DNA of 54,263 nucleotides, taken from the NCBI GenBank assembly GCA_039680575.1, contig JBDKSP010000046.1, forward strand, positions 1 to 54,263, read 5' to 3'. The notes below the pieces were generated by a model. It was not told where the DNA came from, made no database searches, and was given only the letters and a program-made list of their open reading frames with translations. Shown one piece after another: positions 18,471 through 35,743 of the stretch (positions are counted from its first letter, which is position 1; each line of letters starts with the position of its first letter). This DNA is from Armatimonadota bacterium (GTDB taxonomy: Bacteria; Armatimonadota; UBA5829; DTLH01). Made by a program: the position numbers and the translations under genes.

Positions 18471-18999
18471 GCAGCGAAATGACGACGAGAAGTGGGACGC
18501 TATCGCCGGCGTCGATGGCCGCACACGCGTTTCCCAGACCCTTGGTTCAGATCCCAACAAGGCTCTTGCCATTGCGCGTTCCATAGAGCATCCGTGGTAC
18601 CGATGCCAGGCGCTGGCCGAAGTCGTTGATCATCTGGATGACAAACAGCAAAGATCGGCGATCATCAGGGAAGCCTTGAATGCGGCGATGGAAAACGTTG
18701 AGCCGAATCCTGTTCGTCGGCAGGACGCCGCAGTGGTTCTCGTATGGCACATTCCCGATATGCCCGAAGAGTCTCTTCGCGCAGTTATGAATGCCTTTGA
18801 AGCTGCGTGCGGTGAGGGTGTGGGATGGAAGACCGGATACAACCTGCGATGGATGGCAGAGCTTATCAATACACGTGACCATGGAAAGGCCGTGGAACTC
18901 GCACTGATGTCAGGGAACCTGAGGAGCAAACGACGTGCCCTACGTGCCATTGGCGAACGAGAACTTGCAGAGAGGTACTATGAAACTAACCATCCCTGA
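18463..18999 (+). CDS. Hypothetical alpha-helical protein
   Basis: Overlaps the upstream and downstream genes. Repeat-like ALAIARSIEHPWYRCQALAEV. Confidence 0.6.
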   Translation: MAKQRNDDEKWDAIAGVDGRTRVSQTLGSDPNKALAIARSIEHPWYRCQALAEVVDHLDDKQQRSAIIREALNAAMENVEPNPVRRQDAAVVLVWHIPDMPEESLRAVMNAFEAACGEGVGWKTGYNLRWMAELINTRDHGKAVELALMSGNLRSKRRALRAIGERELAERYYETNHP

Positions 19000-21532
19000 A
19001 CTAGCCCTGGTGGTCCTGATCGGCCCATCGGGTTGTGGAAAATCGAGCTTTGCGCGGTCGCACTTCGAACCAACGGAGGTTCTATCCTCGGACTTCTGCC
19101 GGGCGCTGGTTTCTGATGATGAGAATGATCAAGCGGCCACAAAGGATGCGTTCGAGATATTACACTTCGTCGCGGCTAAACGGCTTGCGGCCGGGAAGCT
19201 GACGGTGGTGGACGCGACAAATGTTCAGCCGGAGGCACGGAAGCCCCTGGTTGCGCTCGCGCGGGAGTATCATTGCCTGCCGGTGGCGATGGTCCTCAAC
19301 ATCAATGAGAAAATCTGTCACGAGCGGAATCGAGAGCGCCCCGACCGCGACTTCGGCCCGCACGTCATTCGCCAGCAGAGCGCGCAGTTAAAGAGATCGC
19401 TGGGGAATCTCAAGCGAGAGGGATTCAGGCACATATTTGAGCTGAAGACGCCCGAGGAAGTGGCCGAAGTCGAGATAGAGCGCCAGCCACTCTGGAATAA
19501 CAAGCGGGACGAGCATGGGCCGTTTGATATCATTGGCGACGTCCACGGTTGCTTTGATGAACTCTGCACACTCCTTGCCGATCTTGGTTATGAGGTTTCG
19601 GAGAATTTGGCAAGGCATCCGGATGGGCGAAAGCTCGTGTTCCTTGGCGACATTGTGGACCGGGGGCCGGGGATAGTTGAGACGCTGAGGCTGGTGATGG
19701 CGTCGGTCGAGGCGGGGACGGCGCTTTGCGTCCCCGGAAACCACGACATGAAGCTCCAGCGGAAGCTTCTCGGCAAAGACGTGCAGATCACTCACGGCCT
19801 GGCTGATTCCCTGGCGCAGCTCGAGAACGAAACTGATGAGTTTCGGGAGAGAGTTCGACTATTCCTGGACGGCTTGGTTAGCCACTATGTCCTTGACGAC
19901 GGCAAGCTCGTGGTGGCGCACGCCGGTTTGAAAGAGTCGATGCAGGGGCGCGGTTCGGGCAAGGTCCGCGACTTCGCCCTATACGGTGAGACCACTGGTG
20001 AGACTGACGAGTTCGGCCTCCCGGTGCGCTACAACTGGGCAGCGGAGTATCGGGGCAAAGCTACCGTCGTCTACGGCCATACACCCGTCCCCGAAGCTGA
20101 CTGGCTGAACCGCACCATCAACATCGACACCGGATGCATATTCGGAGGCAATCTTACGGCGCTGCGTTACCCGGAGAAGGAGATTGTCTCGGTTCCGGCC
20201 AGCAAGGTCTACGCTGAACCCGCCAGACCGTTCGAGCCGAACGAAGATGCGCAAGCGCTCACCGCTCAGCAGGAGCATGATGACGTCCTTGACATAGATG
20301 ATGTTATCGGCAAGCGTATCGTATCGACTAGGCTGAACCGTACCGTCACCATTCGGGAAGAGAACGCCACCGCCGCACTTGAAGTGATGAGCCGGTTCGC
20401 AGCAAATCACAGGTGGCTGATCTACCTGCCACCGACGATGTCACCGTGCGAGACAAGTCGCAGACCCGATCTGCTGGAGCACCCCGAAGAGGCGTTTTCA
20501 TACTACCGACACGAGGGAGTATCGCGTGTGGTCTGTGAGCAGAAGCATATGGGCTCGCGCGCGGTTGTGATAGCATGCCGTGATGAAGATGCTGCCCGAA
20601 AGCGCTTTGGCGTCGTCAACGAAGGCATCGGAATATGTTACACCCGCACGGGCCGCCGGTTCTTTAACGAGCCAGAACTTGAGGTTCAAATGCTGGAGAT
20701 GGTCCGATCAGCACTGGATAAGTCCGGGTTCTGGGATGAGTTTGCCACCGACTGGGTCTGCCTGGACTGCGAGCTCATGCCATGGTCGGCGAAGGCTCAA
20801 GAACTGCTGAAGTCGCAATACTCGGCTGTCGGCGCGGCATCGCGGGCATCGTTGGGTGAGGCTGTCACGGTTCTGGAAACTGCTGCGAATAGCGGCGCCG
20901 AAGTCTCGGAACTGCTTGGCCGCTTCCGCAGTCGAAGAGATATGGTCGGTCAGTACGTAGACGCTTATCGACAATACTGCTGGCCGGTTTCGAGCATTGA
21001 GGACTACAAACTCGCGCCGTTCCACATCCTGGCGACGGACAGCGGTGTGCACGTGGACAAGGATCATGTGTGGCACATGGAGACGCTGGCGAAAGTATGC
21101 CGCGTACTCGACGACTGCAATTCCCTGCTTCTTGCCACACCCTACAAGGTGGTGGATGTAACCGATCCTGCAAGCCAGGAAGAGTGCGTCCGCTGGTGGC
21201 AGGAACTTACAGGCTCCGGCGGAGAGGGAATGGTCGTCAAACCGATGGATTTCGTCACTCGCGGACGAAAAGGGCTTTTGCAGCCGGCAGTAAAATGCCG
21301 GGGTCGGGAATACCTGCGCATTATCTACGGGCCGGAATACACGGTGCCTGAGAACCTGGAGCGTCTGCGCTCACGTGCCTTGGCTGGCAAGCGATCTCTG
21401 GCAATTCGGGAGTTCGCGCTCGGAATTGAGGGGCTTGAGCGGTTTGTCCGCAAGGAGCCACTCAGGCGAGTACACGAGTGCGTCTTCGGCGTCCTTGCGC
21501 TCGAGAGCGAGCCGGTGGATCCGAGGCTGTAA
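18980..21532 (+). CDS. pnkp: Polynucleotide kinase-phosphatase-ligase (bacterial Pnkp)
   Basis: Kinase GPSGCGKS and VDATN. Metallophosphoesterase DVHG, GDIVDRG, GNHD. Ligase motif I EQKHMGSR and EGMVVK. C-terminal LESEPVDPRL. Start moved to ATG 18980 after GAGG. Confidence 0.95.
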   Translation: MKLTIPELALVVLIGPSGCGKSSFARSHFEPTEVLSSDFCRALVSDDENDQAATKDAFEILHFVAAKRLAAGKLTVVDATNVQPEARKPLVALAREYHCLPVAMVLNINEKICHERNRERPDRDFGPHVIRQQSAQLKRSLGNLKREGFRHIFELKTPEEVAEVEIERQPLWNNKRDEHGPFDIIGDVHGCFDELCTLLADLGYEVSENLARHPDGRKLVFLGDIVDRGPGIVETLRLVMASVEAGTALCVPGNHDMKLQRKLLGKDVQITHGLADSLAQLENETDEFRERVRLFLDGLVSHYVLDDGKLVVAHAGLKESMQGRGSGKVRDFALYGETTGETDEFGLPVRYNWAAEYRGKATVVYGHTPVPEADWLNRTINIDTGCIFGGNLTALRYPEKEIVSVPASKVYAEPARPFEPNEDAQALTAQQEHDDVLDIDDVIGKRIVSTRLNRTVTIREENATAALEVMSRFAANHRWLIYLPPTMSPCETSRRPDLLEHPEEAFSYYRHEGVSRVVCEQKHMGSRAVVIACRDEDAARKRFGVVNEGIGICYTRTGRRFFNEPELEVQMLEMVRSALDKSGFWDEFATDWVCLDCELMPWSAKAQELLKSQYSAVGAASRASLGEAVTVLETAANSGAEVSELLGRFRSRRDMVGQYVDAYRQYCWPVSSIEDYKLAPFHILATDSGVHVDKDHVWHMETLAKVCRVLDDCNSLLLATPYKVVDVTDPASQEECVRWWQELTGSGGEGMVVKPMDFVTRGRKGLLQPAVKCRGREYLRIIYGPEYTVPENLERLRSRALAGKRSLAIREFALGIEGLERFVRKEPLRRVHECVFGVLALESEPVDPRL

Positions 21533-22632
21533 CACATTCCGAGGAGGGGTACTAAACATCGGCAAAGAGACAGATTCATGCTTGGGACTGCTGAACGGAG
21601 GCTACAAACGACGAAAGCGGAAGACCACCACAGAGATAGTTTTCCGCTTTACATTTGGTAGGGGACTTTGTTCTGGTCCAAAACAACCAAACATCTGTTT
21701 CTTGCAAAGTGGTCTCCAGCGTGAAGCCACCTGAAATCTCGAACCCTCGATTCCATTATTGCAGCCGCTCGCCCCGTCTTCCGAGTTCAAAAGCGGGGCG
21801 ATTATGGCATTATCGAATTTCCGTTCGTCTGAAAGTGAAGGGGACTTTGCAGTCGCTCAGACTTGCAATGACTGTGGGACGTTGCCACAGGAACTCAGCG
21901 ATCCTGATGCAGGCTTGAGCATTGGGACGTGGTGGGCCAGGGAACCACTAGCGAAACCTCCAACTCGGCTTAAGAACTGGGCGGTGTTATCGGAAGCTCT
22001 GAATTGAACCGCTTGTATTCGCTGCCGCTGCCCGTGCCCCTCCGTTCTCAAGATGACATCAACCTGAACTCGAAATGTTCGCTGGTGATGAGCTTGCGCA
22101 GCCCGAACGTAATGTCTTTGCTGGCAACCAGATGGTTTGGTGGGCCAAGAAACCTCTGGCAAAAACTAAGAGCGATCTTCGGACGTGGGATATTGGACAG
22201 CAGAAACCACGGAGCTGAAAAGTCGTCATCCGAGACAGAGACGCGTGGACTCTCGACCACAAAAAGTGACGGCGGTTCTCTCTCAAGTCCAAAGGAACCG
22301 CCCATCACTTCGTACCGCCCCGGTAACCACAAGTCACGTTCTGCGATCCTCCGCTTGCCGTGTTTCATATCCACATGCCATTTTCGGAGATGGTGATTGC
22401 GGCGACTCTGAACCGGCGGTTTGTGCCTAGTCCGCCATTGGGCACACCTGAAGTCCACCCAGAATATGCACGTCCGAGCGGGAGCCATAACCATCACGAT
22501 AGCGCATTGCGGTTGTGCCATCTGCCGAACTGGGGAATCGCATTGCACCGGCAAGTATGTCAGGCACATGACAGCGCTTGAAATGCACCTTCTCCCAGAC
22601 GACTTCCTCAGACCTTGTTCTCCGTAGGATTC

Positions 22633-22911
22633 TATGCCCAGACCTTACTCTGGAGTAGTTCCACTTTTCCGTAGCGCGATGACTACGAAGGTCCGCAGCA
22701 TAGTTCATGCAACCGCTTCTTCCCTGTCTCTACAATGGAGTTGATGGTCAGTAATGACAGGTGTCGGAGGCGGATTATGCCCGGACCTTACTCTGGAGTA
22801 GTTCCACTTTTTCGTAGTGCGATGGCTACGAAGGTCCGCAGTATAGTTCATGCATCTGCTTCTTCCCTGTCTCTACAATGGAGTTGATGGTCAGTACTGA
22901 CAGCTGTCGGA
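22633..22911. repeat. Tandem direct repeat, two 136-bp units at a 143-bp period, with internal inverted repeats
   Basis: Unit 1 is 22633-22768 and unit 2 is 22776-22911 (TATGCCCRGACCTTACTCTGGAGTAGTTCCAC...GTCAGTAMTGACAGSTGTCGGA), differing only by scattered substitutions. Confidence 0.95.
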
Positions 22912-23002
22912 CGTAGATTGCGCCGTGGCAGGGCCAGGCTCGACGTTAGTCACTAAGGTCACTTTCTCGGTCGGCGGGAGTACCCGCAAGGAGGTTGCAA
23001 AA

Positions 23003-23611
23003 ATGTCTCTTTCTTTGTTCTCTGCGGTCAAAGTAGTTCGCGCCATCATCGGTGCCAGGCCTTCGCTAAGGCCTGGTGTGCGCAATGTAGCGGTGATCGC
23101 TGATCTCGACAATATCTCGATCAGCCTTGCCGAGTACGGAAAACGACCTGACTGGCATGCTCTTCATGACTTCGCTTCAAGAAAGGGCAAGGTTGTGGCT
23201 GCTGAGGCTTTCGGCGAGACTCGATCTACTGCTGGATACCAGTCATTCGTCGGTGCACTTACGAAGATGGGCTACAAGGTACACCTTTCACCGGCCACCG
23301 AAGGTTACCATTTTCGCAAGGCTGCGCCGGTAGACCACAGCCTCGTCGCCAGGACAATGGCTCTTCTGCTCGACTACCAAATCGACGAAATACTGATCTC
23401 TAGCGGGGATGCCGATTTCCTACCGCTCATTGCTGAACTTCGTAGTCGCGGGGTCGTCGTCACTCTGGTCGCGCCGGACGGGTGCACCAGTCGCAAGCTT
23501 GCAGCAGCGGCCGACGAAGTCGTGTCTTTCACTCAGGTCGGGACCACCCGGCTTAATTCGACTGTTCTGATGAACAGGCGTCCGGCAGTAGCTTCTGCCC
23601 AGGCGCATTAG
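23003..23611 (+). CDS. NYN domain (LabA/DUF88, PIN-fold) putative ribonuclease
   Basis: VAVIADLDNI, KAAPVD, ISSGDADFLPL...RGVVVTLV, LAAAADEVV. The conserved acidic residues are present. ATG 23003 follows AAGGAGG. Confidence 0.85.
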   Translation: MSLSLFSAVKVVRAIIGARPSLRPGVRNVAVIADLDNISISLAEYGKRPDWHALHDFASRKGKVVAAEAFGETRSTAGYQSFVGALTKMGYKVHLSPATEGYHFRKAAPVDHSLVARTMALLLDYQIDEILISSGDADFLPLIAELRSRGVVVTLVAPDGCTSRKLAAAADEVVSFTQVGTTRLNSTVLMNRRPAVASAQAH

Positions 23612-23614
23612 GAG

Positions 23615-23848
23615 GTGAATGTCTTGATCAGCGGCATTGACGAGATGATGGGATTTGTCAGCGGCCACAAAGCGAGGCATTACCGACTGGTCTCAGCACT
23701 AGTAGGCACACTCGCCGTAGTGACCCAGGTGTGTACCGTAGCGCTTCACAGTGTTGCGCTCGCGGCGACTGCCTTCGCTCTCCTTGCCTGGTCGTCTTGG
23801 CACAGGCATGCCCGGTTCATGATCCGATACTTCTTGCGGTGCAAATGA
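23615..23848 (+). CDS. Small membrane protein
   Basis: Hydrophobic stretch LVSALVGTLAVVTQVCTVALHSVALAATAFALLAW. GGAGG right after the NYN stop suggests TTG 23624 may be the true start. Confidence 0.5.
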   Translation: MNVLISGIDEMMGFVSGHKARHYRLVSALVGTLAVVTQVCTVALHSVALAATAFALLAWSSWHRHARFMIRYFLRCK

Positions 23849-23960
23849 GCAAGGACACGGCCGTACTGGGTACCACCCGATGTGGTTCCCAGAAACGGAC
23901 TGCAGTCGCATCCGCAACACGCTATCACACAGATCGCCTTTGATGTTGGAGGATGGAAAG

Positions 23961-24965
23961 ATGAAACGTTTCGCTAGACTGATCCTTATTCTTCTTGCGT
24001 TCACTGGGGCCATTATCGCAGCCGTCGGAAAGCCCATCTGTGTATGGGCAACCCGTCACGCAGTAGGCGAACTCCCCGCAGGGAATTTCTCCACGGCGCT
24101 CGTCTGTCTCGACTATTCAGAGGCGCGGACAGATGTTATACGCGTTCTCACAGTCAATCAGGCAACGGGCAAGGCCGCCATGATCAAGATGTATCGTGAC
24201 CTCGAATGGTGGCACAACGGTCGGACCCATCGTCTGAATTCCGCCTGGCAATTCGGGGGCCCTGATGCGACACTTCGTGCCATCAGAGAAGTCTCCGGAC
24301 TGACAGTAGATCATATCATCGTTCTGCGCATAAAGGACGCAGAGAAGATGGTTGACTCCTTGGGTGGATTGACAATGGATCTGCCGTCGATATCCTGGAA
24401 GGGCTGGACTTATCGCTCAGGCGTTCAGGCTTTTTCGGGTGACGATGTCGTGAAGATCTTCCGGACGCGCCATGGCATCGATGGAGGTGACGGGAGCGAT
24501 ATCGGACGAACCGCACTGCAGGACCGGGTTCTTGCATGTTTGTTAGTCCGCCTGCGCTCTCTCTCTCCCATAGAGATGCGCAGGGTGGCTGGCGTTATTT
24601 CAGGTGTTCAGAGCGACCTCAGCCAGCGCAGGCGACTGCAGCTGGCTTTGGCCTTGAAAGATGCCAGTATGCGCCAGTTCGCTATTCCCTACACCGTAGC
24701 GGGTCCCCGGCTTCAGGCAGTGGACGATTGTCTGTCCCTGTGGCGCGAGCACATCGCAGCATGGCTGGCTGCCCCCGGCGACATAGAGCCTGTGGTCACT
24801 GTCCACGACCCAGACGTAGTCCGACCACGAGTGCTGCTTCCACACCCAGCGACCGAGAAACAGAAAGAGCTTGCCTCCTATCTGGGCAGACACAACTCTG
24901 CCGCCGTCGTAGCCGATGTGAGTGTCCCGGGCGTCACCCTCGTAGAGAAGGAGATAAGCAGATGA
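23961..24965 (+). CDS. LytR-CpsA-Psr (LCP) family phosphotransferase
   Basis: N-terminal TM helix. RTDVIRV, MYRDL, RLNSAWQFGG, FRTRH...SDIGRTALQ (LCP Arg/Asp motifs). ATG 23961 follows GGAGG. Confidence 0.85.
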   Translation: MKRFARLILILLAFTGAIIAAVGKPICVWATRHAVGELPAGNFSTALVCLDYSEARTDVIRVLTVNQATGKAAMIKMYRDLEWWHNGRTHRLNSAWQFGGPDATLRAIREVSGLTVDHIIVLRIKDAEKMVDSLGGLTMDLPSISWKGWTYRSGVQAFSGDDVVKIFRTRHGIDGGDGSDIGRTALQDRVLACLLVRLRSLSPIEMRRVAGVISGVQSDLSQRRRLQLALALKDASMRQFAIPYTVAGPRLQAVDDCLSLWREHIAAWLAAPGDIEPVVTVHDPDVVRPRVLLPHPATEKQKELASYLGRHNSAAVVADVSVPGVTLVEKEISR

Positions 24966-26074
24966 AAGCCATCGTCTTGATCGTTATAGTCGCAGTCCTG
25001 GCTTCTGCTTCGGCGGCGGCTGCCGAAGGTGTCTTCGTTCTATTTGTGCTCGACACCTCTGGCAGCATGACGAAGCAGATGCAGGCAGTAGCTTCCGCAC
25101 AAGCGGCACAGGTAAAGCTGGCAGCGCGCCCCGGTGACTTTGTGGGCCGGATTGTATTCAGCGACTACAGTCGGAAGGATCTGCTGGCTGAGATTCGCAC
25201 GGGAGCCGATGTTGTGAACGCGGCTGAGGTACTGGCGTCCGCTCCGTCGTCCATATCTGGATGGACATACATAAGCCATGGACTTACTTCGGCATTCGAT
25301 TTGTGGAAGGCACGCGCTGGTGGCCGTCGAACACTTGTATTCCTTGTTACAGACGGTATTCCTGCCACTCCGCCTGCAAGTCTTTCAGCCGAAGTTGAGG
25401 CACTAAAAGCACAGTCGGTAAGGTGGAAATCGGCTCCGGGGTGCAAGATCTTCCTGGTTGCGATTGGTCGCCCTGACAATGCACAGGCTATCAAGCGTCT
25501 GAGCGAACAGCTGGGTGCGCAGGTGGTCACACCCGATGCATTGGCTTCAACAAACATGATCGCTCGCGAATTGCGTGAAGCCCGGCCTATTACATCTACG
25601 GCACAAAAACCTCGTTCTCGTGGCAAAAATGCTTATCTACCCCTAGCGGCAATCGCCGCCGGTCTGCTTGCCGCATGTATCGTTATCGGCAGAGTCTATG
25701 TCCGGCCAAAGAACAGGGCCAACCCCAATGAGTTCTCTGAAGAAGGACCGGAGGATGATACCTGGACGGGAATTGTCCGTGTAGTTGCAACCGTGGACGG
25801 GGAACCCGAGGTGATCCGGCTCTTCATGCCGAACGATGACTGCCCCGAAGGTCGAGTGAGCTTCGGTCCTTTCGGTTGCCACATCAGTCTACCGGATGCT
25901 CAGTTCAACTTGGCCTTAAGTAGTTCCGCGACGGCGGTGGAATTGCCAGTAGGCGAGTCTGTGACCGTCAATGGCATCATCCGCACTGGCGGTGAATTCG
26001 CTATCGGTGAATCTTCGGAAATAATCGCTGGCAGCGCACACGTGATCATTGACCTGAAGAAGGGGAGGAACTGA
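24962..26074 (+). CDS. Exported vWA-domain protein with TM helix and C-terminal FHA-like beta domain
   Basis: True start is ATG 24962 (ATGA overlap with the LCP stop). Signal peptide, MIDAS DTSGSM, GWTYI, LVTDG, TM LPLAAIAAGLLAACIVI, C-terminal VTVNG...IIAG. Confidence 0.8.
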   Translation: MKAIVLIVIVAVLASASAAAAEGVFVLFVLDTSGSMTKQMQAVASAQAAQVKLAARPGDFVGRIVFSDYSRKDLLAEIRTGADVVNAAEVLASAPSSISGWTYISHGLTSAFDLWKARAGGRRTLVFLVTDGIPATPPASLSAEVEALKAQSVRWKSAPGCKIFLVAIGRPDNAQAIKRLSEQLGAQVVTPDALASTNMIARELREARPITSTAQKPRSRGKNAYLPLAAIAAGLLAACIVIGRVYVRPKNRANPNEFSEEGPEDDTWTGIVRVVATVDGEPEVIRLFMPNDDCPEGRVSFGPFGCHISLPDAQFNLALSSSATAVELPVGESVTVNGIIRTGGEFAIGESSEIIAGSAHVIIDLKKGRN

Positions 26075-26075
26075 A

Positions 26076-28814
26076 ATGGTAAGGAACGTCTACGCTATAC
26101 TCGGTGATGGCGGACTTGGCATCACCGGAATCCGCAACTATGCTCGAGCTGAGATCGCACTTCGCGGCGCTGTGCCGCCGAACGTCTTGTTAGTAGAAGT
26201 CGACCTCTGCAGTTTGACAGGCCGGGATGAGGAGCCCAGCATATCCGGGCTTGTTCCACCGGAGCAGTACCTGGTGCTGCAAGCGCCGGACGTTAACCTA
26301 GGTGCCCGTTGCGCGGCGCTGAGTCCGGAAGACCCCATCCGCAAGTGCATTGACATATCTGCCGTATCCGACATCGGTAACACCGGTACCATCGGCGGCA
26401 ACCAGAGACCCGTCATTCTCCAGTTGGTTGCACTCTTGGAACCGGCATGGTGGGAGTCCGTTGTCGGACACATTGGACAGGCAATTAACCTCCTTGCGGA
26501 GACAAGGGGCTTGTCCCTTGGCACTGTCCACATCAAGATACTGAGGAGCACTCTCGGTACAGTCGGAGCGGGCGGTATGATCTTGACGAGTTCGCTTCAG
26601 GACGGACTCAGGCAGATCAACACTTCGATGATTGACAGTGTTGTTCTACTGGCTGACTACGCCGAGCGGGTTCCAGATCGTCGGCGCGCTCGCGCATCTA
26701 CCGCCGCCGCTCTCGATGAGATCGACCGGCGGGCGAGAGGTATTTTCATCGCGCCCGGCGGTATGTTCAGACCAATCTCCGGCGTGCACGTGCTCTCCGA
26801 GGGCTTCTCCGAAACCGCTATCTTGGAGGAGGACGCCGTGCTTAGCCACCTACTCGTGGCAGGGAAGCTAGAAGGCCCCCTCGTGTCCCCGCTGACTCTG
26901 AGGAACAACACCCGTGATCGCGCCGAGACGGCGACCGCAATGACTGGGCGCATTCTAGTCGCAGATTCCGCTACGCTCCGCCAGCGATCCGGTGCCAGAA
27001 TGGCGGCCCAATCGGCCAATACGTTCGCGAACACCCCCGGTGGTCTTTCGGTGGACGCGCAGGTCGAGGCACTTCTGAGCAGCACCATGAGTAACCCGGG
27101 TGCGCTCATCAACTTGATCGGGCGAAATCTTGGGATCCGCAACGCATCCAAGCGGCTCGTGAACGAGATAGGCCAAGAGGCAGGACGCGCGGCTGATCGT
27201 GAGGTATTCGCGCGTGCTGATGGAATCTTGGACGATGAAGAGCTCAGGACATCGGCGGAGAGCAAGGTCTACGCCTTTACAATGGCGCTGAAAACGACAG
27301 CAGACCAGGCAATGGATAGGTCGCTATCGGGTGCGCTGGAGCTCTTCTCGAGCGGCGTTACCCACTTGCATCGGTACCGTGAAGATCTGTTGCGACTCAA
27401 AGAGACTCGTGAACAGGATGCGGCCACTTGCCGCAACAAGGTCAACGCAGCGGCCGGTCAAGCGGCGGCTGCTGAGGCCACGCGGAGCACTCCTGCGCTC
27501 CGGCAGTCCATCTGGGGCTTCGTCAAGACTGCACTCACGGACGAAAAGCCCGCTGCGCCAACGGCCTCCGATCCTGCAGACCTGAACAATCTTCGGGTCA
27601 GGTATACCTGCGTGTGCGGTGAACTGCAGACAATCGGTGCGCTTACATCGGCTATTGATCACGGGATCAGCGTCGTACGCGCCTATGAGACGGAGATCAG
27701 TGCCCTCCGTGAATTGGTTCTGAGTGCAAGCAGCACATTTGGCCGCATGGACTCTACGCTGGGCCACGAAGCTGTCGAGCGCATACGCAGGTTCGCGGGA
27801 GTGAGTCTGGCGGCAGAAGACGATGTGGTAGATGCACTTGCGAGCGCCCGCCTTGGAGACGGGACTCGTATAGCCACTGAGGCTCTCGCCCGTCTAGGAG
27901 CGACCGAGATTGCCTCAATCAACAGAATTGGCTTGGAGCGGGCTCTGTGGGAAGTTGTAGAGGACTTGCTGGGCCCGGCAGAGACGTTTTCGCTGGACAA
28001 CGTCGTCGGCGAGCTACCACCCGAGATGCTAGACCGTATCGCGCGATCTCTCGTTCCGACGAAGCCTCCAATGACCTTCGATCCAGGTGTGAGTGCACCC
28101 GGCGTGTTCTCGGTAGTTCACGTCGGTCATCCTCGGATGTCCGAGGCGGTTCGTCGCACCAGCTTCGGGCGGAACAGGGTAACGATCTGCCCGGCACCCG
28201 AAGGCAGCGAGTACTTTGCCGTGACCTACACCGGGGTGTTTTCCGTCAAGGACATTGAGTGCTATGGACGCGCCAAAGCCGCCTTTAACGAGGCTGTCGA
28301 GGAGAACTGGGCTGGCCAGATCGTTGACAGGCGCGTGCTCGAGATGCCTGACGACAGCACGGACGACGGCGCGCTTGAGATGCTTATCGCCAAGGCAGTC
28401 CTTGCAGGCTCGCTACAAGCAAGCGCGGCGGGCCGCTGGTACCATGTCGATCCCGGCAGCGGCATCTCTCCCGCAGATCTGGACTCCGCAGCGCTCCACG
28501 CGGCATTCGGCGATTGCCTTGGTTCGGGCATTGCGGAGACTGTTCGGACACTCCGGAGCAAACCATCGCTCCGCAGGGATCTGTCTTCGTCGTGGGATGG
28601 CTACGCCTTGCTCAGGTCGCCGCGACAGATGGTCGAATCCATCGACGCCATGGTGGCTTCGGGAAAGCTCCGCAAACTGAGCGGTTGCTTCAAGAGCATC
28701 AAGTCGGAGTTTCTGAAGGCGCTGCGAGACAGTGTGTTTGATGATGCCTACGTAGAACTCAAGAGAGTTGGGCGCAATGGCAACGGAGCGAAGGAGGAAT
28801 CCTATGTCGCGTAG
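26076..28814 (+). CDS. Divergent tubulin/FtsZ-like (Tubulin_2/FtsZl1-type) domain protein with long helical C-terminus
   Basis: AILGDGGLG (cf. IGLGGTG), LVEVD, GGNQRP (cf. GAGQxR), RSTLGTVGAGG (cf. SLAGGTGSG), followed by coiled coils. Adjacent to a vWA gene, as is typical of this family. Confidence 0.6.
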   Translation: MVRNVYAILGDGGLGITGIRNYARAEIALRGAVPPNVLLVEVDLCSLTGRDEEPSISGLVPPEQYLVLQAPDVNLGARCAALSPEDPIRKCIDISAVSDIGNTGTIGGNQRPVILQLVALLEPAWWESVVGHIGQAINLLAETRGLSLGTVHIKILRSTLGTVGAGGMILTSSLQDGLRQINTSMIDSVVLLADYAERVPDRRRARASTAAALDEIDRRARGIFIAPGGMFRPISGVHVLSEGFSETAILEEDAVLSHLLVAGKLEGPLVSPLTLRNNTRDRAETATAMTGRILVADSATLRQRSGARMAAQSANTFANTPGGLSVDAQVEALLSSTMSNPGALINLIGRNLGIRNASKRLVNEIGQEAGRAADREVFARADGILDDEELRTSAESKVYAFTMALKTTADQAMDRSLSGALELFSSGVTHLHRYREDLLRLKETREQDAATCRNKVNAAAGQAAAAEATRSTPALRQSIWGFVKTALTDEKPAAPTASDPADLNNLRVRYTCVCGELQTIGALTSAIDHGISVVRAYETEISALRELVLSASSTFGRMDSTLGHEAVERIRRFAGVSLAAEDDVVDALASARLGDGTRIATEALARLGATEIASINRIGLERALWEVVEDLLGPAETFSLDNVVGELPPEMLDRIARSLVPTKPPMTFDPGVSAPGVFSVVHVGHPRMSEAVRRTSFGRNRVTICPAPEGSEYFAVTYTGVFSVKDIECYGRAKAAFNEAVEENWAGQIVDRRVLEMPDDSTDDGALEMLIAKAVLAGSLQASAAGRWYHVDPGSGISPADLDSAALHAAFGDCLGSGIAETVRTLRSKPSLRRDLSSSWDGYALLRSPRQMVESIDAMVASGKLRKLSGCFKSIKSEFLKALRDSVFDDAYVELKRVGRNGNGAKEESYVA

Positions 28815-30384
28815 TGACACCTCTGAGACCGGTGGCCGACCGCATATCCGAGACAAGTGGGGTGCGGTGCCACCGCCAGTGCCTACATCGACCGCACGCT
28901 CCATTCGGCCGGATGAGGAATCTGTAAGCTCGCGAGAGACCGTGGCAGATCCGGTCATCCACCATTCCGCTGAACGGGTCTCGCGCAGGTCCAGAGTGAT
29001 CTGCCTGATGGCTGCGGGTCTGTCGCTGGCAGTATCGTTCCTTTCCACGGGCCTCTTGACGGAGGAATTCGCCAGAGCTTACAGTCCGCCTCATCCTGTG
29101 TTCCTGATCGTGCTGTCGCTCTTATGGACAGCTCTGGAGTTCGTCCCGTTGTACGCGTTGGTACGCGGCAATGGCGTTCTCTACGTGAAGTGGACAAAGC
29201 GTATGCTGATGGCCGGGCCTTCGCTCATGGCGCTGGGCAGGTTCGGCCTGGGGTTAACGGCAATCCGAGCCAGTGCGGTTGTCTTGCTGCCTATGGTAAT
29301 GGTCTTGCCAGCGCTCTCCCACCTTTTCGGCAACGAACACACCACATCGGCGCGGCGCTGGTTCTTTTATTTGCTGAGCTTCGGGCTGGGCATACAATTC
29401 GCTTGCGCTCCTTCGGACGGGATAGCGCAAGTCCGAGCAATAGGACTTTCAGTGATGTTGCTTGGGTTCATCGCTCCGCTCCGACCTGCACGTCTACTGT
29501 CCATACTTGACGATGCTGGGCCACGCCGCCTTGCAACGGCGCTCTGGTGGATATCCGGCCTTGTGCTGACAGCTAACGCTGGTGCTAAGTTCGTCACCGG
29601 AAGCGCTACACCCGGGATCAGTGTGGGAGGCGTCGGGATCGCTCCCTATTGGATAGCAGTGTTTCCCATCTTGACAGCGGTCGGGATCGAACTACGAGAA
29701 GGTACGGCCAAGAGACTGGGTATCGGACTTGGACTAATGGTAGTCCTGTATGTCTTTGGTCTGAAGGAGGGCGGCACTGCCCTCATGGTGCTGATAGCGG
29801 CGTTGCTGGTGACAGCCGTACTCGGGAGTGGCAGGCAGGTACTAGTGGGATTGACCTTGGGAACCACTGGCTACCTCTTCCTCAAGACTGGTTGGGCTGC
29901 GAGTGTGGCTGGGGTGTTTTCGGACCGAATCGCGTCCAGGCTGTCGATTTGGCACGGCTTAGCCTTCAACGCACAGCTTGCTTCCTATTATGATGTGGTC
30001 TCCATGTCGGGATGGACCGGGTTCTGCGGAGCGGCCAGGTCGTCGCTACTAATTCCCGCCGCAAGTAAAGACTTCATACTTGGTGCTATCGTAGCTGAAA
30101 CGGGCCTGGTGGGTCTTGTTTGCGCGACCGCGGCGTTGGCCTTCTACCTGCTCGAAATCGGCAGGTCTGTGGCCGCTCAAGATAATGCCTTCCGGCGCGC
30201 TGCCGGGTGTGGTGTCTGGTTGGCACTGTGTGCAAGCTTGCTCGTGAGTTATGCACCAACTCTGGGCTGGCTAATGCCCACAGGATTGCCACTACCCGCG
30301 CTTAGCCGCGGAGCGGCCGTGACTGTGGCGGCATGCCTCGCCTTGATTGTGTTTGAGTGGTTGAACTGGGAGGAATCGAGATGA
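28804..30384 (+). CDS. SEDS-family (FtsW/RodA/SpoVE) peptidoglycan glycosyltransferase
   Basis: Multi-TM protein. KEGGTAL, RLSIW, PAASKDFILGAIVAETGLVG, PTGLPLPALSRG (cf. TDFIFAIIGEELG, TGITLPFISYGG). ATG 28804 follows AAGGAGG. Confidence 0.8.
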   Translation: MSRSDTSETGGRPHIRDKWGAVPPPVPTSTARSIRPDEESVSSRETVADPVIHHSAERVSRRSRVICLMAAGLSLAVSFLSTGLLTEEFARAYSPPHPVFLIVLSLLWTALEFVPLYALVRGNGVLYVKWTKRMLMAGPSLMALGRFGLGLTAIRASAVVLLPMVMVLPALSHLFGNEHTTSARRWFFYLLSFGLGIQFACAPSDGIAQVRAIGLSVMLLGFIAPLRPARLLSILDDAGPRRLATALWWISGLVLTANAGAKFVTGSATPGISVGGVGIAPYWIAVFPILTAVGIELREGTAKRLGIGLGLMVVLYVFGLKEGGTALMVLIAALLVTAVLGSGRQVLVGLTLGTTGYLFLKTGWAASVAGVFSDRIASRLSIWHGLAFNAQLASYYDVVSMSGWTGFCGAARSSLLIPAASKDFILGAIVAETGLVGLVCATAALAFYLLEIGRSVAAQDNAFRRAAGCGVWLALCASLLVSYAPTLGWLMPTGLPLPALSRGAAVTVAACLALIVFEWLNWEESR

Positions 30385-31724
30385 GTTTCAAACTGAGGAT
30401 TCTTGTTGTGCTGAGTGTGCTCTTTACATTCGCGATAGTGGTGCTCGCGGACTTCCACGGGCGGCAAGAGAGTGTTCCTGCATACGAGCCGACACTGCCC
30501 CGAGCTATAGCTGCAACGAGCCCTGCGCTGGTTGACAGAGTACTGGACCGTGACGGCCGAACCATTCTCGCACGAGAGTTCGTGATAAAGGGCGGCGGAC
30601 GTTCTGCGGTTATCAGATACGTCTATGGATCAGCGCTGGGGGCTGCGGGCGTGGGTCGCGACCGGATCGTTGCCGGTATGATCCGCCATTTGCGAGCACC
30701 AGGTATAGATGCGCCTTGGTCAACACCAGAGCTGGGCGGGTGGTATCGCAGGTTGTTGGGTGACGGAGGTCTATGCCCCCGACCGCTACCCCATGAACTG
30801 GTTTGTTCCCTGGACTCCACCTTATGCGTTCGGGTGTACGAACTGCTGAAGCGAGAAGGCAGACAAGGGTCTGTGGTGGTTTTGGACCGTGAAGGACAGG
30901 TGCTCGCTCTGGTCGATGCCCCAGGTCCGGATGTCGAAGAATCAGACAGACTGCCTGACTCTCAGCACAGCCTGAACGTCTTCCTGTCCTGGCCGCCAGC
31001 ATCAACTTTCAAACCAATCGTGGCGGCCTACATGCTTGAGTACGGCCGTGGAGACAAGGATGCTGCTGTCGTCTGTAAGGGTGGCGGCGAATGCTGGGCG
31101 AAACATGGACATGGCGTGACCCGGGGGCTGCGGCAGGCCTTGGTACATAGCTGTAATCCTTGGTTCCGGCAGCAGGCGAATTCTTTCCCGAGCGGGCACT
31201 TCCTGGCGTTCTTGAGTGATATCGGCTTCTTTCAGGAACCGTCGCTGGGTATCCCTGCGATACCGGCTGTTACCCCCGCGCGTGGCGGCAACACCGTCGA
31301 TCCGGAGATGGCGATTGGAATGCAAATACTGGCATCACCGCTGTCGTTAGCCTGCGCGTATGGAACAATCTCCGATCCCCAAGGCCGTCGCTTTGCTCCG
31401 CGACTGTTGGTCAGAGCAGACGGGAATCCGCTGCCAGCTCCTGAGAGGCCCCAAGTTCTGCGCCCAAATGTCACGGCTATCGTAAGGGAGCATCTAAAGG
31501 CAGTGGCAAGCATTGGCACAGCGTCAAGACTCGGAAGGCTCCTCAGTGGGAACGTGGGCGCTAAGACTGGCACCGCCAACGGCGCGGCACTACTGGCGGT
31601 GGTGACACCGATAGACTCTCCGAAGTTCATTGTCGTGATACGAATAAAGGGTGCTGAAAGCGGAGCGAGCCTGTGCGATCTTGCAGCTAAAATTGTCAGA
31701 ATGACCGGGCAGGAAACGAGGTAA
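30381..31724 (+). CDS. Class B penicillin-binding protein (transpeptidase), PbpA-like
   Basis: N-terminal TM, VLDRDG, SxxK (PASTFKP), SxN (SCN), KTG (KTGTA). ATGA overlap with the SEDS gene. Confidence 0.9.
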   Translation: MSFKLRILVVLSVLFTFAIVVLADFHGRQESVPAYEPTLPRAIAATSPALVDRVLDRDGRTILAREFVIKGGGRSAVIRYVYGSALGAAGVGRDRIVAGMIRHLRAPGIDAPWSTPELGGWYRRLLGDGGLCPRPLPHELVCSLDSTLCVRVYELLKREGRQGSVVVLDREGQVLALVDAPGPDVEESDRLPDSQHSLNVFLSWPPASTFKPIVAAYMLEYGRGDKDAAVVCKGGGECWAKHGHGVTRGLRQALVHSCNPWFRQQANSFPSGHFLAFLSDIGFFQEPSLGIPAIPAVTPARGGNTVDPEMAIGMQILASPLSLACAYGTISDPQGRRFAPRLLVRADGNPLPAPERPQVLRPNVTAIVREHLKAVASIGTASRLGRLLSGNVGAKTGTANGAALLAVVTPIDSPKFIVVIRIKGAESGASLCDLAAKIVRMTGQETR

Positions 31725-31823
31725 TGCTGCTGATCCCAGGAATGGAGCATCCTATGCTACGGACAAAGCGCAAGCAATGCAGATGACCTCACACTGGTTG
31801 CACATAGCTGACCAATCTCGGCG

Positions 31824-32930
31824 CTATTCTATTCGACCCAATGTAGACATTGAGCGCAAATCAACGAGCACGTTGTTAAGACAACCGTTCAGCGTACCAG
31901 TTAGATCAGGTGCGCCCCACTGCCACCCTACGAAGTAAGTGTCGTTACGAAGAGCGGACGTGGGATCACAGAAATCCATGGAACGCAGAATAAATGGGTG
32001 GCTGGGTTCCTCGTTGATATTACGGCCATTGCTGTCGTAACACGGGGACGTAAAGCTGTTCCGAGGTACATATATAGAGATCTGGCCACTCATTCCGTCG
32101 TGGTCTTTTCGCTGAATCCGGAAACAGCGGACTGAAGAGAACGGGCCGACTTCTCCGTACGCATGCTTGCTCTTAAGCTTCAAGGTGCTTTCGCGCAATT
32201 GACCCATCCAGTCTCCAACGACAGTGAGCATTCGCTCTCCATTGTCCTCAGTAATGTCAGGTTCATAGAAGGCCTGAATTGTGAAACCATTGCTCGCACG
32301 CTCTCGCTCTGCCTGCAGTTGCCGTGAGAAGAGGAAAGGCGATTGAAAGCCGTAGGGAAAAGCCGTCAACTCGTCGGTATCCGCAGTTGTTGGACTGCTA
32401 CTCAAGTCGACGGCGGAAACACAATAGGCATCAGGGCTGCCGTTGACATCGTGTACATTGCGTGGCTGCGGCCACAGTAAACGCATGTTTGAAGTATTCA
32501 AGCTCTCAAGCCCTGTATGGACGTCGTCGATGATCTCTGCCATTTCCGCCTTGTCGCATCCATCTGCGCCAATACATACCATCTGAACGTGCCCCACATT
32601 CTCGACCTGAACGCGTCCGAGAGTATCATATCTACAATGTGATCGGGCAGCTCTAGCGAAGACCCCGTTGTGCGCTAGGGCACGCACCAAGAGTTCCTGG
32701 GACATAACGTCCGAAGCCATTCCGATAAACACAGCTTTCAGTGTATCGATGGTCAACTCTGACGTGGTATCCAGCAACAACGGAAGGAAGGCTGAGGAGC
32801 ACCAAGTTGCGACAGACAGGTCCTCATACATTGGTCGCTCTGACCACGCGCTGGCATCTTCTCGGTTACTCATATCTAGTTTGACCTCCAGATTCACGGT
32901 ATTCAGGATTACGTAGGCTGGTACTCGCAC
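31824..32930 (-). CDS. Hypothetical protein (alternative start ATG 32873)
   Basis: Long open frame that is co-directional with the upstream operon. No motif recognised. Confidence 0.6.
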   Translation of the reverse strand: MRVPAYVILNTVNLEVKLDMSNREDASAWSERPMYEDLSVATWCSSAFLPLLLDTTSELTIDTLKAVFIGMASDVMSQELLVRALAHNGVFARAARSHCRYDTLGRVQVENVGHVQMVCIGADGCDKAEMAEIIDDVHTGLESLNTSNMRLLWPQPRNVHDVNGSPDAYCVSAVDLSSSPTTADTDELTAFPYGFQSPFLFSRQLQAERERASNGFTIQAFYEPDITEDNGERMLTVVGDWMGQLRESTLKLKSKHAYGEVGPFSSVRCFRIQRKDHDGMSGQISIYVPRNSFTSPCYDSNGRNINEEPSHPFILRSMDFCDPTSALRNDTYFVGWQWGAPDLTGTLNGCLNNVLVDLRSMSTLGRIE

Positions 32931-32997
32931 TCTGACAGGAAGCGAAGCAGTTCAGCTTCTCCGTATCAGATGGCCAGTAGAACACGTCAGAGCACGC

Positions 32998-33591
32998 CTA
33001 CACTCCACCGTTTGCGTTTACCATACTGTCAACACTGTCCGCAGTGAGACGGAATCGCCAGGGCTGCAGATAGGGTTCTGTCTCGCAGAATACTTGAGCA
33101 AGTGGTCGCTGCTCCAGCATACAACGCATTACGCGGATCACTCCGTTATGGGAAACCACCGCAACGTTGACATCCTCCTCCAAGTTCATCACAGTGAACA
33201 GAAACGTGCGAATCCGGTCCACGAAAAGGCTGAAAGTCTCACCACTAGGGGGCGTAAAGTACGGATCCAAGCGGCCAGCCTTGTTGAATGCGTCTGGAAA
33301 CTGGATTCGCAAGTCTTTCTTTGACTGTCCAGACCACGACCCTAGATCTCGCTCTGCTAGGCCTGCGTCCAGTATAACTGGCTGGTCTGGGAAGATGAGT
33401 TGCGCCGTCGCCTTGGCTCGTGCCAGTGGAGAGCAGAATCGGTATTCAAACCGGTCTCCGCTCAGCATTTGTCCGAGTTCCTCGGCTGCGCGCAACCCAT
33501 CCTCAGTGCTGGGTATATCCATAGAGCCCATGAATATCTCACGTCGGTTGGACTCCGTCGGCGCGTGTCGAATTACTGTTATGTACGGCAT
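32998..33591 (-). CDS. Histidine phosphatase (phosphoglycerate mutase-like) family protein
   Basis: RHAPT, SPLARAKATA, ERDLGSWSG, GET, VSHNG. Confidence 0.9.
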   Translation of the reverse strand: MPYITVIRHAPTESNRREIFMGSMDIPSTEDGLRAAEELGQMLSGDRFEYRFCSPLARAKATAQLIFPDQPVILDAGLAERDLGSWSGQSKKDLRIQFPDAFNKAGRLDPYFTPPSGETFSLFVDRIRTFLFTVMNLEEDVNVAVVSHNGVIRVMRCMLEQRPLAQVFCETEPYLQPWRFRLTADSVDSMVNANGGV

Positions 33592-33639
33592 TCTGATACT
33601 AATGATTACTCCGATCCAGGTGGAAGACTAGTGCGTTGT

Positions 33640-34575
33640 TCATTCCGCGAACACACTTCTCAAGGCGCGGTTGATATCCTCAAGCGCCTCTCGCCCCTTG
33701 TCCAGAACACGGAACTGGATCACGTATCCGTGCATCATTCCCTCGTAGCGTTTCATCTGGACGGGAACACCTGATTCCTGAAGGCGCTTAGCATACATCT
33801 CCCCCTCGTCTCTCAGTGGGTCGAACTCACCGGTCAACACAAAAGCTGGCGGGAGACCGCTGAGATCGGCGGCTCTAAGTGGGCATATGTATGGATTGTT
33901 GATATCGGGATCACTGGGCAGGTAGTTGTTCCAGAACCAGATCATAAAGTCTCGATTCAACGAATACCCCTTCGCGTTCTCTTCGTATGATGGCGTCCCA
34001 GGAATGTAGTAATCTGTGACTGGATATATCAGCACTTGGTAAACCAAACTGGGACCTCCTCGGTCACGAGCCAGCATCGCGACTGCTGCCGCTTGGGTTC
34101 CCCCTGAACTATCACCCCCGACAGCCACTCGATTCGGATCTCCGTTAATCGCCCGCGCATTATTCACCACCCACTGGGTCGCCATATAGGAATCATCGAT
34201 AGCCGCAGGGAATTTGTGTTCAGGCGCAAGTCGGTAGTCTACCGAAACGACTATACACCCACCGCCATTTGTGATACTTCGGCATATGCCATCGTGTGTG
34301 TCTAGATTGTTAAGAGTCCATCCACCTCCGTGAAAGAATACGAGAATGGGGAATGGACCTTCTCCAGCAGGAGTGTAGATGCGCAGTCCGATGTCTCCGC
34401 AAGGTCCGGGTATTGCACTATCAGTTACGTTCGCTACGGGCTCGGGTTCCGCGCCTGTTACAAACGCTGCAATCATTCTCTTCCTGGCTTCCTCCACCGG
34501 TAGTGTGTAGACTGGGGGAAGTCCAGCGGCTTTTGCCGCATCCAGTAGTTTTTGAGCTTGTGGATCAAGTGACAT
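33640..34575 (-). CDS. Alpha/beta hydrolase, HSL-family esterase/lipase
   Basis: HGGGW oxyanion loop, DYRLAPEH, GDSSGG nucleophile, FDPLRD, MHGY. Start moved to ATG 34575 (MSLDPQ) after GAGGAG. Confidence 0.9.
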   Translation of the reverse strand: MSLDPQAQKLLDAAKAAGLPPVYTLPVEEARKRMIAAFVTGAEPEPVANVTDSAIPGPCGDIGLRIYTPAGEGPFPILVFFHGGGWTLNNLDTHDGICRSITNGGGCIVVSVDYRLAPEHKFPAAIDDSYMATQWVVNNARAINGDPNRVAVGGDSSGGTQAAAVAMLARDRGGPSLVYQVLIYPVTDYYIPGTPSYEENAKGYSLNRDFMIWFWNNYLPSDPDINNPYICPLRAADLSGLPPAFVLTGEFDPLRDEGEMYAKRLQESGVPVQMKRYEGMMHGYVIQFRVLDKGREALEDINRALRSVFAE

Positions 34576-34603
34576 TCTGTTCTCCTCTTCGTGTAGTAGT
34601 ATG

Positions 34604-35743
34604 TCAGCTTCGTCCGGTGCACCCCGAAGTCTGAACATTGGGTGCTAGGCCGTCGTAGCTATAGACTGGTTGCAGCCTACCAATGACCTCGCCAGGGCAG
34701 CGTTCAAGTATGGCGTGCAACAAGCCATCCAATATATCTCTGGTAGCTCCATAACCCCTTACAGTCAGTTGGGGCATATTTCGCAGACTGTCACCTACCC
34801 GGTATTCGTGCCCGTTTATCGATACGGAGCCCGGACCCTGGTCCAAAGTGAGATACGATGGTACCTCAACACCAAGACCGTGAGGGGACAAGACCAGCTC
34901 TTTGGAGCCGACAACGGCATGATTGTCAAGAGCCGGACGTGGTTTCACAAAGAATAGATCCTGCTGAGGGGCCGTCAGTAGCAGATAAGGTTGTGATTTC
35001 CACTGACAACCTATTGCCACAGAACTGGCCGTCGGCATGCCGTAGTGCATTACGTTCAGCACTTCCTCAACGATCTGATTGCCTCCGGCGATTAGATCTG
35101 CAAAATACCGGAGTCTATTCCTACCCTCGACTTGCAGACGCCGCGCTTCCTGAAAGAAACGGTCAGCTGTCGAGCCGCATATGTAGCGAAGATAGCGCCC
35201 GGATGTGTCCAGTTCAATGTGGATATCACCTGCATACCAGTTGGACTCGGTCGGGTACAGTCCGTGGTACTGGTGCTTGCTCTCCCTGCCAGAAGCATGT
35301 AGAACCAAGTAGGCACCATCTGGAACAATATCAGAGCCACTTACCACACCGTACGTCACGAAGTGGTTCCCTTCTCCAAAATTCCACTGGTACACGCCCT
35401 CCCGGTCTGCTCTGTCTCTTCCTTGTTCGATCATTTCCTGGAAGCGTCGGGGGTCCTCAATGCAGCTGGTGAGTCTGAAGACAGCGACACCACAGCTGTT
35501 GACGGTGGCATCGACGGGAACAAACGGCACACTGGTCTGCCAACTGTAAAGTGCCCCAGTGAAGAAACCACCGGCGATCCGCACGGTGTTGTAAGGCAAG
35601 CCAAGATCCGGCATCGCCCATATCTGAGACCCTTGTTCAACTCCGGACAGCTTGCTCGCTACAGTGGCAAGCATTCTTTCCGTCACTGCTAGATGGCGAA
35701 GAATCTCCATCTGGGTAGGGTCATTGAGCGTCAAGTTGCGCAT
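34604..35743 (-). CDS. Divergent RtcB-family protein (RNA 3'-P/5'-OH ligase fold)
   Basis: Ordered motifs MPD, VDATVNSCGV, GEGNHF, LHASG, MHYG, SPHGLG parallel RtcB MPD, DxxCG, GNHF, HxGS, HN, HGAG. Confidence 0.65.
   Translation of the reverse strand: MRNLTLNDPTQMEILRHLAVTERMLATVASKLSGVEQGSQIWAMPDLGLPYNTVRIAGGFFTGALYSWQTSVPFVPVDATVNSCGVAVFRLTSCIEDPRRFQEMIEQGRDRADREGVYQWNFGEGNHFVTYGVVSGSDIVPDGAYLVLHASGRESKHQYHGLYPTESNWYAGDIHIELDTSGRYLRYICGSTADRFFQEARRLQVEGRNRLRYFADLIAGGNQIVEEVLNVMHYGMPTASSVAIGCQWKSQPYLLLTAPQQDLFFVKPRPALDNHAVVGSKELVLSPHGLGVEVPSYLTLDQGPGSVSINGHEYRVGDSLRNMPQLTVRGYGATRDILDGLLHAILERCPGEVIGRLQPVYSYDGLAPNVQTSGCTGRS

Follow-up and report, generated by a model that had tools for sequence, protein, structure and literature searches.

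A rare operon joining tubulin-like, vWA, LCP, SEDS and class B PBP genes in an Armatimonadota bacterium: a candidate scaffolded wall-building machine

The window analysed here is the whole of contig C46 (JBDKSP010000046.1; 54,263 nucleotides) of an Armatimonadota bacterium with a 2.97 Mb, 97% complete genome assembly (GCA_039680575.1). It carries an operon of seven + strand genes at 23003-31724, which encode NYN, a 74-aa protein, LCP, vWA, a 912-aa tubulin-like protein, SEDS and a class B penicillin-binding protein (PBP). We propose that the LCP-to-PBP genes encode an accessory machine for scaffolded wall building that was gained by horizontal transfer; judged from the predicted proteins and their arrangement, we place this proposal evenly between right and wrong. 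The genes are as follows.

23003..23611, + strand: NYN (LabA/DUF88, PIN-like) predicted RNase, 202 aa; PF01936 (E 5.9e-23); aligns to 2qip
23624..23848 (TTG start), + strand: 74-aa protein, hydrophobic over a long stretch; present in the protein collection as a called gene, with a ribosome-binding site (RBS) and a hydropathy profile
23961..24965, + strand: LCP-family glycopolymer-peptidoglycan ligase, 334 aa; PF03816 (E 8.8e-20); one N-terminal membrane anchor
24962..26074, + strand: vWA protein, 370 aa; Pfam vWA (E 4e-9), hydropathy and motifs
26076..28814, + strand: 912-aa protein with an N-terminal FtsZ/tubulin-fold domain; hhalign, AF2 model, VIA and Foldseek
28804..30384, + strand: divergent SEDS glycosyltransferase, 526 aa; PF01098 (E 6.9e-7), alignments and tree
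30381..31724, + strand: class B PBP (monofunctional transpeptidase), 447 aa, with a short N-terminal region; PF00905 (E 3.9e-19)

The initial annotation had described seven co-directional genes, and these were found; it named six, the seventh being the 74-aa open reading frame (ORF) at 23624-23848. Its gene identities were also confirmed, with Pfam matches for NYN, LCP, vWA, SEDS and the transpeptidase; the 912-aa protein lacks a Pfam match and its fold was assigned by profile comparison and a predicted structure. All seven frames are open and preceded by an RBS. The GGAGG sequence reported earlier is present ahead of six of the seven starts but not ahead of vWA, which has AAGGAG. The reported ATGA-type overlaps occur at two of the six junctions (LCP/vWA and SEDS/PBP) and not at the other four. 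The vWA and tubulin-like genes are separated by 1 nt and the tubulin-like and SEDS genes overlap by 11 nt; from LCP to PBP, all four junctions abut or overlap. Gaps of 12 nt (NYN/small ORF) and 112 nt (small ORF/LCP) were observed upstream. The GC content of the operon is 0.581 compared with 0.511 +/- 0.024 for the genome, a level met by one of 555 genome windows. This indicates a horizontal origin, and the operon was likely acquired horizontally.

In the proposed mechanism, the SEDS protein would polymerise lipid II, the PBP would cross-link the SEDS product and the LCP protein would attach a glycopolymer, with the place and time of synthesis set by the tubulin-fold scaffold and the membrane-spanning vWA adaptor. 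The vWA domain may bind a ligand outside the cell via its intact metal ion-dependent adhesion site (MIDAS). The cytoplasmic tail of the vWA protein and/or a conserved N-terminal motif of the SEDS protein may dock on the 912-aa protein; the SEDS motif, which lies before a variable linker, would be the best candidate docking site. Because its T4 loop is altered, the 912-aa protein is probably a static or nucleotide-gated scaffold and not a treadmilling GTPase. The machine would respond to demand by making a thickened, decorated patch of wall at one place and would not serve routine growth or division. Both NYN and the 74-aa protein are likely to be an addition transcribed together with the core, which may regulate mRNA or act as a growth-arrest module.

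The SEDS protein carries additional membrane segments at its N-terminus, together with a conserved motif there (RP..DKWGA..PVP, aa 10-30) that precedes the variable linker. The DF aspartate, reported earlier as kept, is present (D423-F). Residues D423, R379, W383, R184/R185 and S501 are retained in all four family members and P418 in three of the four. These correspond to E. coli D262, R210, W214, R48, S344 and P257, respectively; the residues were mapped by motif, via the host RodA, and not by direct alignment to the E. coli protein. According to the available part of PMC10449877, D262A and P257A abolished SEDS activity, and R210A and R48A strongly reduced it. The window SEDS is altered at the ExHT equivalents E258, H260 and T261, positions where changes left activity unaffected (PMC10449877, same part).

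All three catalytic motifs of the PBP, SxxK, SxN and KTG, are present as had been claimed (S208-x-x-K, S257-C-N and K395-T-G). With a catalytic Asp in one protein and these motifs in the other, the two adjacent genes show the arrangement and catalytic motifs of a SEDS-bPBP pair. The top PDB sequence matches of the PBP were 7rd0, which we take to be PBP3 of Clostridioides difficile, and SpoVD 7rcz. Residues C232, C238, H242/H244 and C258 align with the Zn-site pattern of both structures. A Zn-site motif has been described for SpoVD/PBP3 of C. difficile (PMC9334274, in the part available).

Three SEDS genes and four transpeptidase-family genes were identified in the genome. Of the core enzymes, RodA is encoded on C22 and FtsW and FtsI on C88, within the dcw cluster; C60 encodes PBP2 as well as a 747-aa PBP. 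The top-ranked relatives of the core RodA are from Chthonomonadales (51-53% identity; Armatimonadota in the labels of the tree tool), with Negativicutes close behind, and on this basis the phylum of the host is probable. Three homologues of the window SEDS were found at 60-67% identity; in a nine-row tree, which cannot place the origin of the window SEDS, they and the window SEDS form a clade of their own (support 100/100). The branch of this clade is very long, and its distance to the host RodA is 7.4 changes per column. The earlier proposal depended on this SEDS and PBP not being the host's core orthologues, and on these grounds they are extra copies, distinct from rodA/pbp2 and ftsW/ftsI.

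The 912-aa protein had no matches in Pfam (PF13809 included), NCBIfam or PADLOC. Its central and C-terminal regions have no family match, and an Atlas search with aa 560-912 gave no usable match. A profile of its N-terminal domain matched 14 Tubulin_2 domains in hhalign with a probability of 95.1% (E 3e-8, 205 columns); the maximum for 60 block-shuffled controls was 43%. An AF2 model of aa 1-330 was obtained (pLDDT 67, pTM 0.71). When this model was searched with VIA against 48,161 chains, the top 17 were all of the FtsZ/tubulin family; the best match was FtsZ (Z 15.1, root-mean-square deviation 2.8, 185 residues aligned), and the first fold outside the family had a Z of 10.4. Agreement in Foldseek was weaker (best E 3.6e-4, with some dehydrogenases interspersed), and a sequence-only PDB search with the tubulin profile returned no match. 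As modelled, the N-terminal domain is an FtsZ/tubulin fold, in line with the earlier claim. Tubulin_2 clusters in the Atlas scored 0.87-0.89 for the 912-aa protein, a lead only.

A T1-like loop, GDGGLG, is intact in this domain. The T4 loop reads LGTVGAG and departs from the canonical signature GGGTG(S/T)G; the position is LGTVGA in 3/3 close members and NG(A/S)(V/I)G in 3/3 full-length split homologues. No motif of the NxDxxD type, the T7-type motif, was seen in the protein. The T6-H7 region of FtsZl1 was likewise unidentifiable in the published analysis of Makarova and Koonin (PMC2875224, in the text available), and the Tubulin_2 family is treated as a divergent outgroup in the available part of PMC9871819. 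We interpret the 912-aa protein as an FtsZl1-like tubulin that has diverged strongly and is doubtful as a GTPase, and the absence of the canonical GTP loop makes a GTP-driven 'cytoskeleton' role doubtful as well. Two full-length homologues were found, at 67% and 52% identity. The distant homologues (P0004-P0014) fall into two size classes, with three proteins of 243 aa corresponding to the N-terminus and five of 681-735 aa corresponding to the C-terminal part, which suggests that a two-gene split form exists elsewhere.

The LCP protein scored 69.5 bits against TIGR00350 (cut-off 62.3). When it was aligned to 3qfi and 3owq, five of the six Arg residues were kept (R56, R79, R168, R170 and R183); the last Arg of the 3qfi motif is replaced by L186, and the earlier statement that the Arg motifs are kept holds except at this position. 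The vWA protein consists of an N-terminal signal or anchor, the vWA domain, a membrane segment (224-242) and a beta-rich tail (aa 263-370). Its MIDAS is complete (D31-x-S33-x-S35, T102 and D131), and it is predicted to be a trans-membrane adaptor. An FHA identity for the tail was considered and is unsupported: there was no Pfam match, and the hhalign probability of 1.2% was equalled or beaten by 12 of 100 shuffles. A single-sequence structure model of the tail had a pLDDT of 39, too low to be of use. In NYN the acidic site is present (D34, N37, D111, D136 and D138). Four acidic residues are predicted for the LabA-like family, and its function has not been established (PMC5499597, in the part available). 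Whether NYN belongs to the operon core is uncertain. The 74-aa protein probably has two membrane segments, and its match to SLATT_1 is weak (E 0.085, below the cut-off).

The cassette is very rare. In the 52 class genomes the tubulin-like gene was not found, and a sample of 400 phylum genomes yielded neither this gene nor a member of the SEDS family. The sole phylum match of one profile (A4; genome G397, E 7.7e-4) covered 61 of 240 positions of an unrelated-looking 548-aa protein and was rejected as chance. Pattern scans of genome, metagenome and viral contigs and of plasmids, which detect mainly close relatives, gave no confirmed relative. The tubulin-like and SEDS homologues P0001 and P0016 are both JGI entries for which the longest contig measures 13,084 bp, and the homologues P0003 and P0018 are both from Logan, on two contigs, the longest being 81,540 bp for both; from the matching contig sizes, homologues of the two genes appear to sit on the same contigs in two metagenomes. 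The NYN search recovered only the query itself among 1887 candidates. The distant loci may thus have no NYN, carry a far more diverged copy or be cut.

Short contigs matching the operon were observed in two freshwater runs (X2/X3) of one study, distinct from the run that probably yielded the genome, with depth in 12 of 15 bins over 22808-31822. At least 15 pieces are listed, at 82-100% identity over NYN, the small ORF, LCP, vWA, tubulin-like and PBP; one bridges NYN and the 74-aa ORF (about 90% identity) and another bridges LCP and vWA. At the 2-5x depth of these runs, the lack of coverage over much of SEDS and on the right flank (0/7 bins in X3 and 2/7 in X2) is uninformative. An RNA run gave a single short piece, from which nothing is concluded on expression. 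Conservation of the gene set as a unit, on which the earlier proposal depended, held in part: tubulin-like and SEDS appear, from contig sizes, to be linked in two metagenomes and fragments of six genes occur in the freshwater study, but NYN lacks a detected homologue. Among the pieces listed for X2/X3, identity was 95-100% over the vWA tail and the tubulin-like gene (25641-28344) and 82-90% over NYN, LCP, the vWA domain and PBP. This contrast may come from recombination, from the presence of two populations or from exported parts changing faster.

Several points weigh against the proposal of an accessory wall-building machine. The SEDS protein lacks the RW and QPSExxK motifs, is changed at the equivalents of R109, E114 and K117 and has Glu at D159; changes at E114, K117 and D159 impaired SpoVE in vivo (PMC10449877, in the part available), and together these observations imply that its substrate or activity may differ. 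The GTP loop of the tubulin-like protein is non-canonical. Co-location of tubulin-like and SEDS homologues was deduced indirectly, from contig sizes, and the searches of the large protein database covered tubulin-like, SEDS and NYN. Canonical Tubulin_2 is present in 148 of 401 phylum genomes, yet in only two of 52 class relatives; twenty of its neighbourhoods in the phylum, picked for family spread and contig size, contained no SEDS, PBP or LCP gene. A control SEDS profile built without the window family recovers the window SEDS at E 5e-11. A small vWA profile matched one of the 20 loci and is too weak for counting vWA genes. The pairing with wall genes is thus no rule of the wider family. The initial annotation had proposed an accessory, cytoskeleton-scaffolded wall-remodelling machine acting in defence. 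An accessory, scaffolded machine remains the best reading, but the GTP-driven cytoskeleton is doubtful and the argument for defence comes from the neighbourhood.

Compared with published systems, the operon is close to two sets of tubulin-vWA loci, described here from the portions of the papers available. Like the FtsZl1 (Tubulin_2, PF13809)-vWA loci (Makarova and Koonin 2010, PMC2875224), it encodes a protein of about 900-1100 aa whose FtsZ-like domain is N-terminal and whose T7 is unrecognisable, next to a membrane-associated vWA protein with an intact MIDAS, and it occurs beside normal division genes. Unlike those loci, its tubulin is below Pfam detection with an altered GGGTG(S/T)G loop, and it lacks kinase, P-loop GTPase and OmpA genes and has SEDS, bPBP and LCP. 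The words penicillin, FtsW, RodA, LytR and SpoVE are absent from six supplementary files of PMC2875224. The GAP1-N2 DO-GTPase systems (Kaur et al., 2020, PMC7159879) share with the operon a tubulin with a C-terminal extension, a membrane-bound vWA protein with a beta-rich domain and a proposed action near the membrane and wall; unlike them, it has no DO-GTPase, GAP1 or FNIII gene, and none of its seven genes gave a GTPase match. FtsW, transpeptidase, LytR and NYN are absent from the main text and two supplement files, possibly incomplete, of PMC7159879. The role of FtsZl1/Tubulin_2 has been deduced from gene context only (PMC2875224, PMC7159879). The PBP resembles SpoVD/PBP3 of C. difficile in its aligned Cys, Cys, His, SxN-Cys pattern, and those proteins serve non-essential, specialised wall synthesis (PMC9334274; PMC12713402; parts available). 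It differs in having no sporulation context, a shorter N-terminal region and linked tubulin-like, vWA and LCP genes.

No published description of the NYN-LCP-vWA-tubulin-like-SEDS-PBP combination was found in the literature within reach of the search, which excluded most subscription papers. Cytoskeleton-guided SEDS-bPBP synthases are FtsZ with FtsW-FtsI and MreB with RodA-PBP2. In these, too, a SEDS and a class B PBP with catalytic residues are joined by a protein of cytoskeletal fold and by a partner that spans the membrane. Unlike the divisome and elongasome synthases, the operon is accessory and rare, with a tubulin of another family and a degenerate GTP loop, and it has a vWA adaptor in place of FtsQLB or MreCD, plus LCP. 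The marks of the operon would be the LCP gene, SEDS and PBP as separate genes and a GTP loop that is eroded. A bolder and rather unlikely proposal is that it represents a third class of cytoskeleton-organised wall synthase, mobile and self-contained. In it, detection of a phage or competitor by the vWA adaptor would lead an FtsZl1-type tubulin to place its own SEDS-bPBP and an LCP for the building of a decorated wall patch, and the NYN RNase would be a switch or kill function. If true, this would be the first concrete output for the Tubulin_2 family. What the partners encoded in the operon would do can be assayed (polymerisation of lipid II, labelling by beta-lactams, incorporation of HADA and ligation of a glycopolymer), so the role of an FtsZl1-like tubulin is directly testable in one 9-kb construct. 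The operon would also be an example of a complete wall-synthesis module moving between genomes as accessory cargo.

The following features were identified around the operon and in its non-coding parts.

644-4629: Gabija GajA-GajB pair (PADLOC, E 9e-234 and 8e-213)
11834-21532: RNA-repair cluster of Hen1, two HEAT-repeat proteins, two RlaP nucleotidyltransferases, a 178-aa protein with no assigned family and Pnkp
21614..21751, - strand: integration-like scar made of the last bases of tRNA-Glu(CTC) and its downstream hairpin, plus a 13-nt piece of the same tRNA
22633..22918, no strand assigned: two tandem 143-bp copies, 92% identical, immediately upstream of the operon
23858..23902, + strand: predicted hairpin without a U-tract, within the 112 nt that part LCP from the NYN/small-ORF pair
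31824-38071, - strand: five-gene run of a helix-turn-helix-like/NB-ARC/TPR protein, a 379-aa protein, an alpha/beta hydrolase, a histidine phosphatase and a 368-aa protein with no assigned family
39471-53965, - strand: BREX/Ssp-like cluster of BrxL-DUF4145, PglZ, a 1391-aa ATPase, BrxF-like, SspB/DUF4007, an Eco57I-type methylase and Mrr_N

The 1391-aa ATPase is nearer SspC than BrxC, and the mix of BREX/Ssp-like genes may be an unusual subtype. The right end of the contig is a repeated IS-like sequence. The scar parts the RNA-repair operon from the wall cassette, and the interval up to NYN also holds a 290-bp degenerate stretch common with another genome (G038), a repeat of about 40 bp and the 143-bp tandem duplication. 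The interval reads as a mosaic integration hotspot. At such a site a defence neighbourhood is explicable without a defence function, and a defence function would still be compatible with it. The defence-island location claimed earlier is borne out to the extent that Gabija, Pnkp-Hen1/RlaP and BREX/Ssp-like genes are on the contig, but the tRNA-Glu-type scar separates the RNA-repair genes from the operon. In PADLOC none of the five core genes (LCP to PBP) matches, and NYN matches one NYN model at E 3e-11. A defence role, for which the neighbourhood is the evidence, is unproven.

One alternative is that all seven genes form an anti-phage or anti-predator system, in which vWA would sense attack, the enzymes would plug or mask the wall, and NYN and the small membrane protein would arrest or kill the cell. 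Gabija, BREX/Ssp-like, NB-ARC-TPR and RNA-repair genes on one contig, the intact acidic site of NYN with its PADLOC match and the weak SLATT match of the small ORF are consistent with such a system, and so are the fragments of four core genes, NYN and the small ORF that occur together in one freshwater run. Genes for tubulin and vWA have also been assigned to membrane-proximal conflict systems (PMC7159879, in the part available). We nevertheless consider this explanation unlikely. No NYN homologue was recovered despite tubulin-like and SEDS homologues at 52-67% identity, a gap with a hairpin lies between the NYN side and the core, and the operon has neither a DO-GTPase nor a GAP1 gene. The core is unmatched in PADLOC, and the tRNA-Glu-type scar and pseudogene-like DNA before the defence neighbours are as found at a general integration hotspot.

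The enzymes themselves could instead make a different polymer, with SEDS polymerising another undecaprenyl-linked glycan, LCP ligating it to the wall and the PBP remodelling the anchoring peptides. Loss of the RW/QPSE/K and PDLG motifs in all four SEDS family members and the very long SEDS branch would fit such a surface-glycan machine. So would the tight coupling to LCP, which is unusual among SEDS-bPBP pairs. However, no glycosyltransferase, flippase or sugar-synthesis genes are present in the operon, and the SEDS gene shows translational coupling to the gene of a PBP whose motifs are complete, an arrangement also seen in lipid II polymerase pairs; we regard this explanation as distinctly improbable. 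Still less credence is given to the idea that the genes share no function and are cargo of a mobile island, there by chance or in decay. Their absence from the class and phylum genomes (0/52 and 0/400), the eroded motifs and the lack of described relatives could be read in that way, but seven open frames with RBSs and tight coupling, the selective retention of catalytic residues across homologues at 52-67% identity and the apparent co-travelling of two genes in separate metagenomes make it very unlikely.

The hairpin at 23858..23902 has a z of -3.3 (1/200 shuffles), a selected score, since the site was chosen after a chance-level Rfam match. An Rfam scan of 21400-24100 gave two miRNA matches at chance level, and promoter and terminator scans were at shuffle level. 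The 143-bp tandem copies have no further copy in the genome and an unremarkable fold; it is possible that they are a duplicated promoter or regulatory region.

Some minor observations were made on the contig and elsewhere in the genome and its relatives. The 379-aa protein of the five-gene run has no family match and is RtcB-like by eye only. A 54-bp repeat (89% identity; 4801-4854 and 6003-6056) flanks a methyltransferase gene region. The repeat upstream of the operon (22256-22295) belongs to a repeat of about 40-65 bp seen in several genomes of the order (G000 C69 13179-13215 and 15224-15263; L141-L150). It often lies directly past the stop of a gene, ends in a small hairpin plus CCACCA and has no Rfam family; the window copy is truncated and lies within a stronger hairpin (z -4.0). 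On G000 C69 (9396-15408), a tmRNA is followed by repeated segments of 110-236 bp between cargo genes that include a restriction-modification-like pair, and the region looks like stacked islands. G000 C89 (44600-53500) carries a multi-FHA protein cluster that also includes a vWA protein and genes resembling phosphatases and kinases. This cluster may act in trans as a partner to the operon; the relatives searched have FHA clusters of about the same size.

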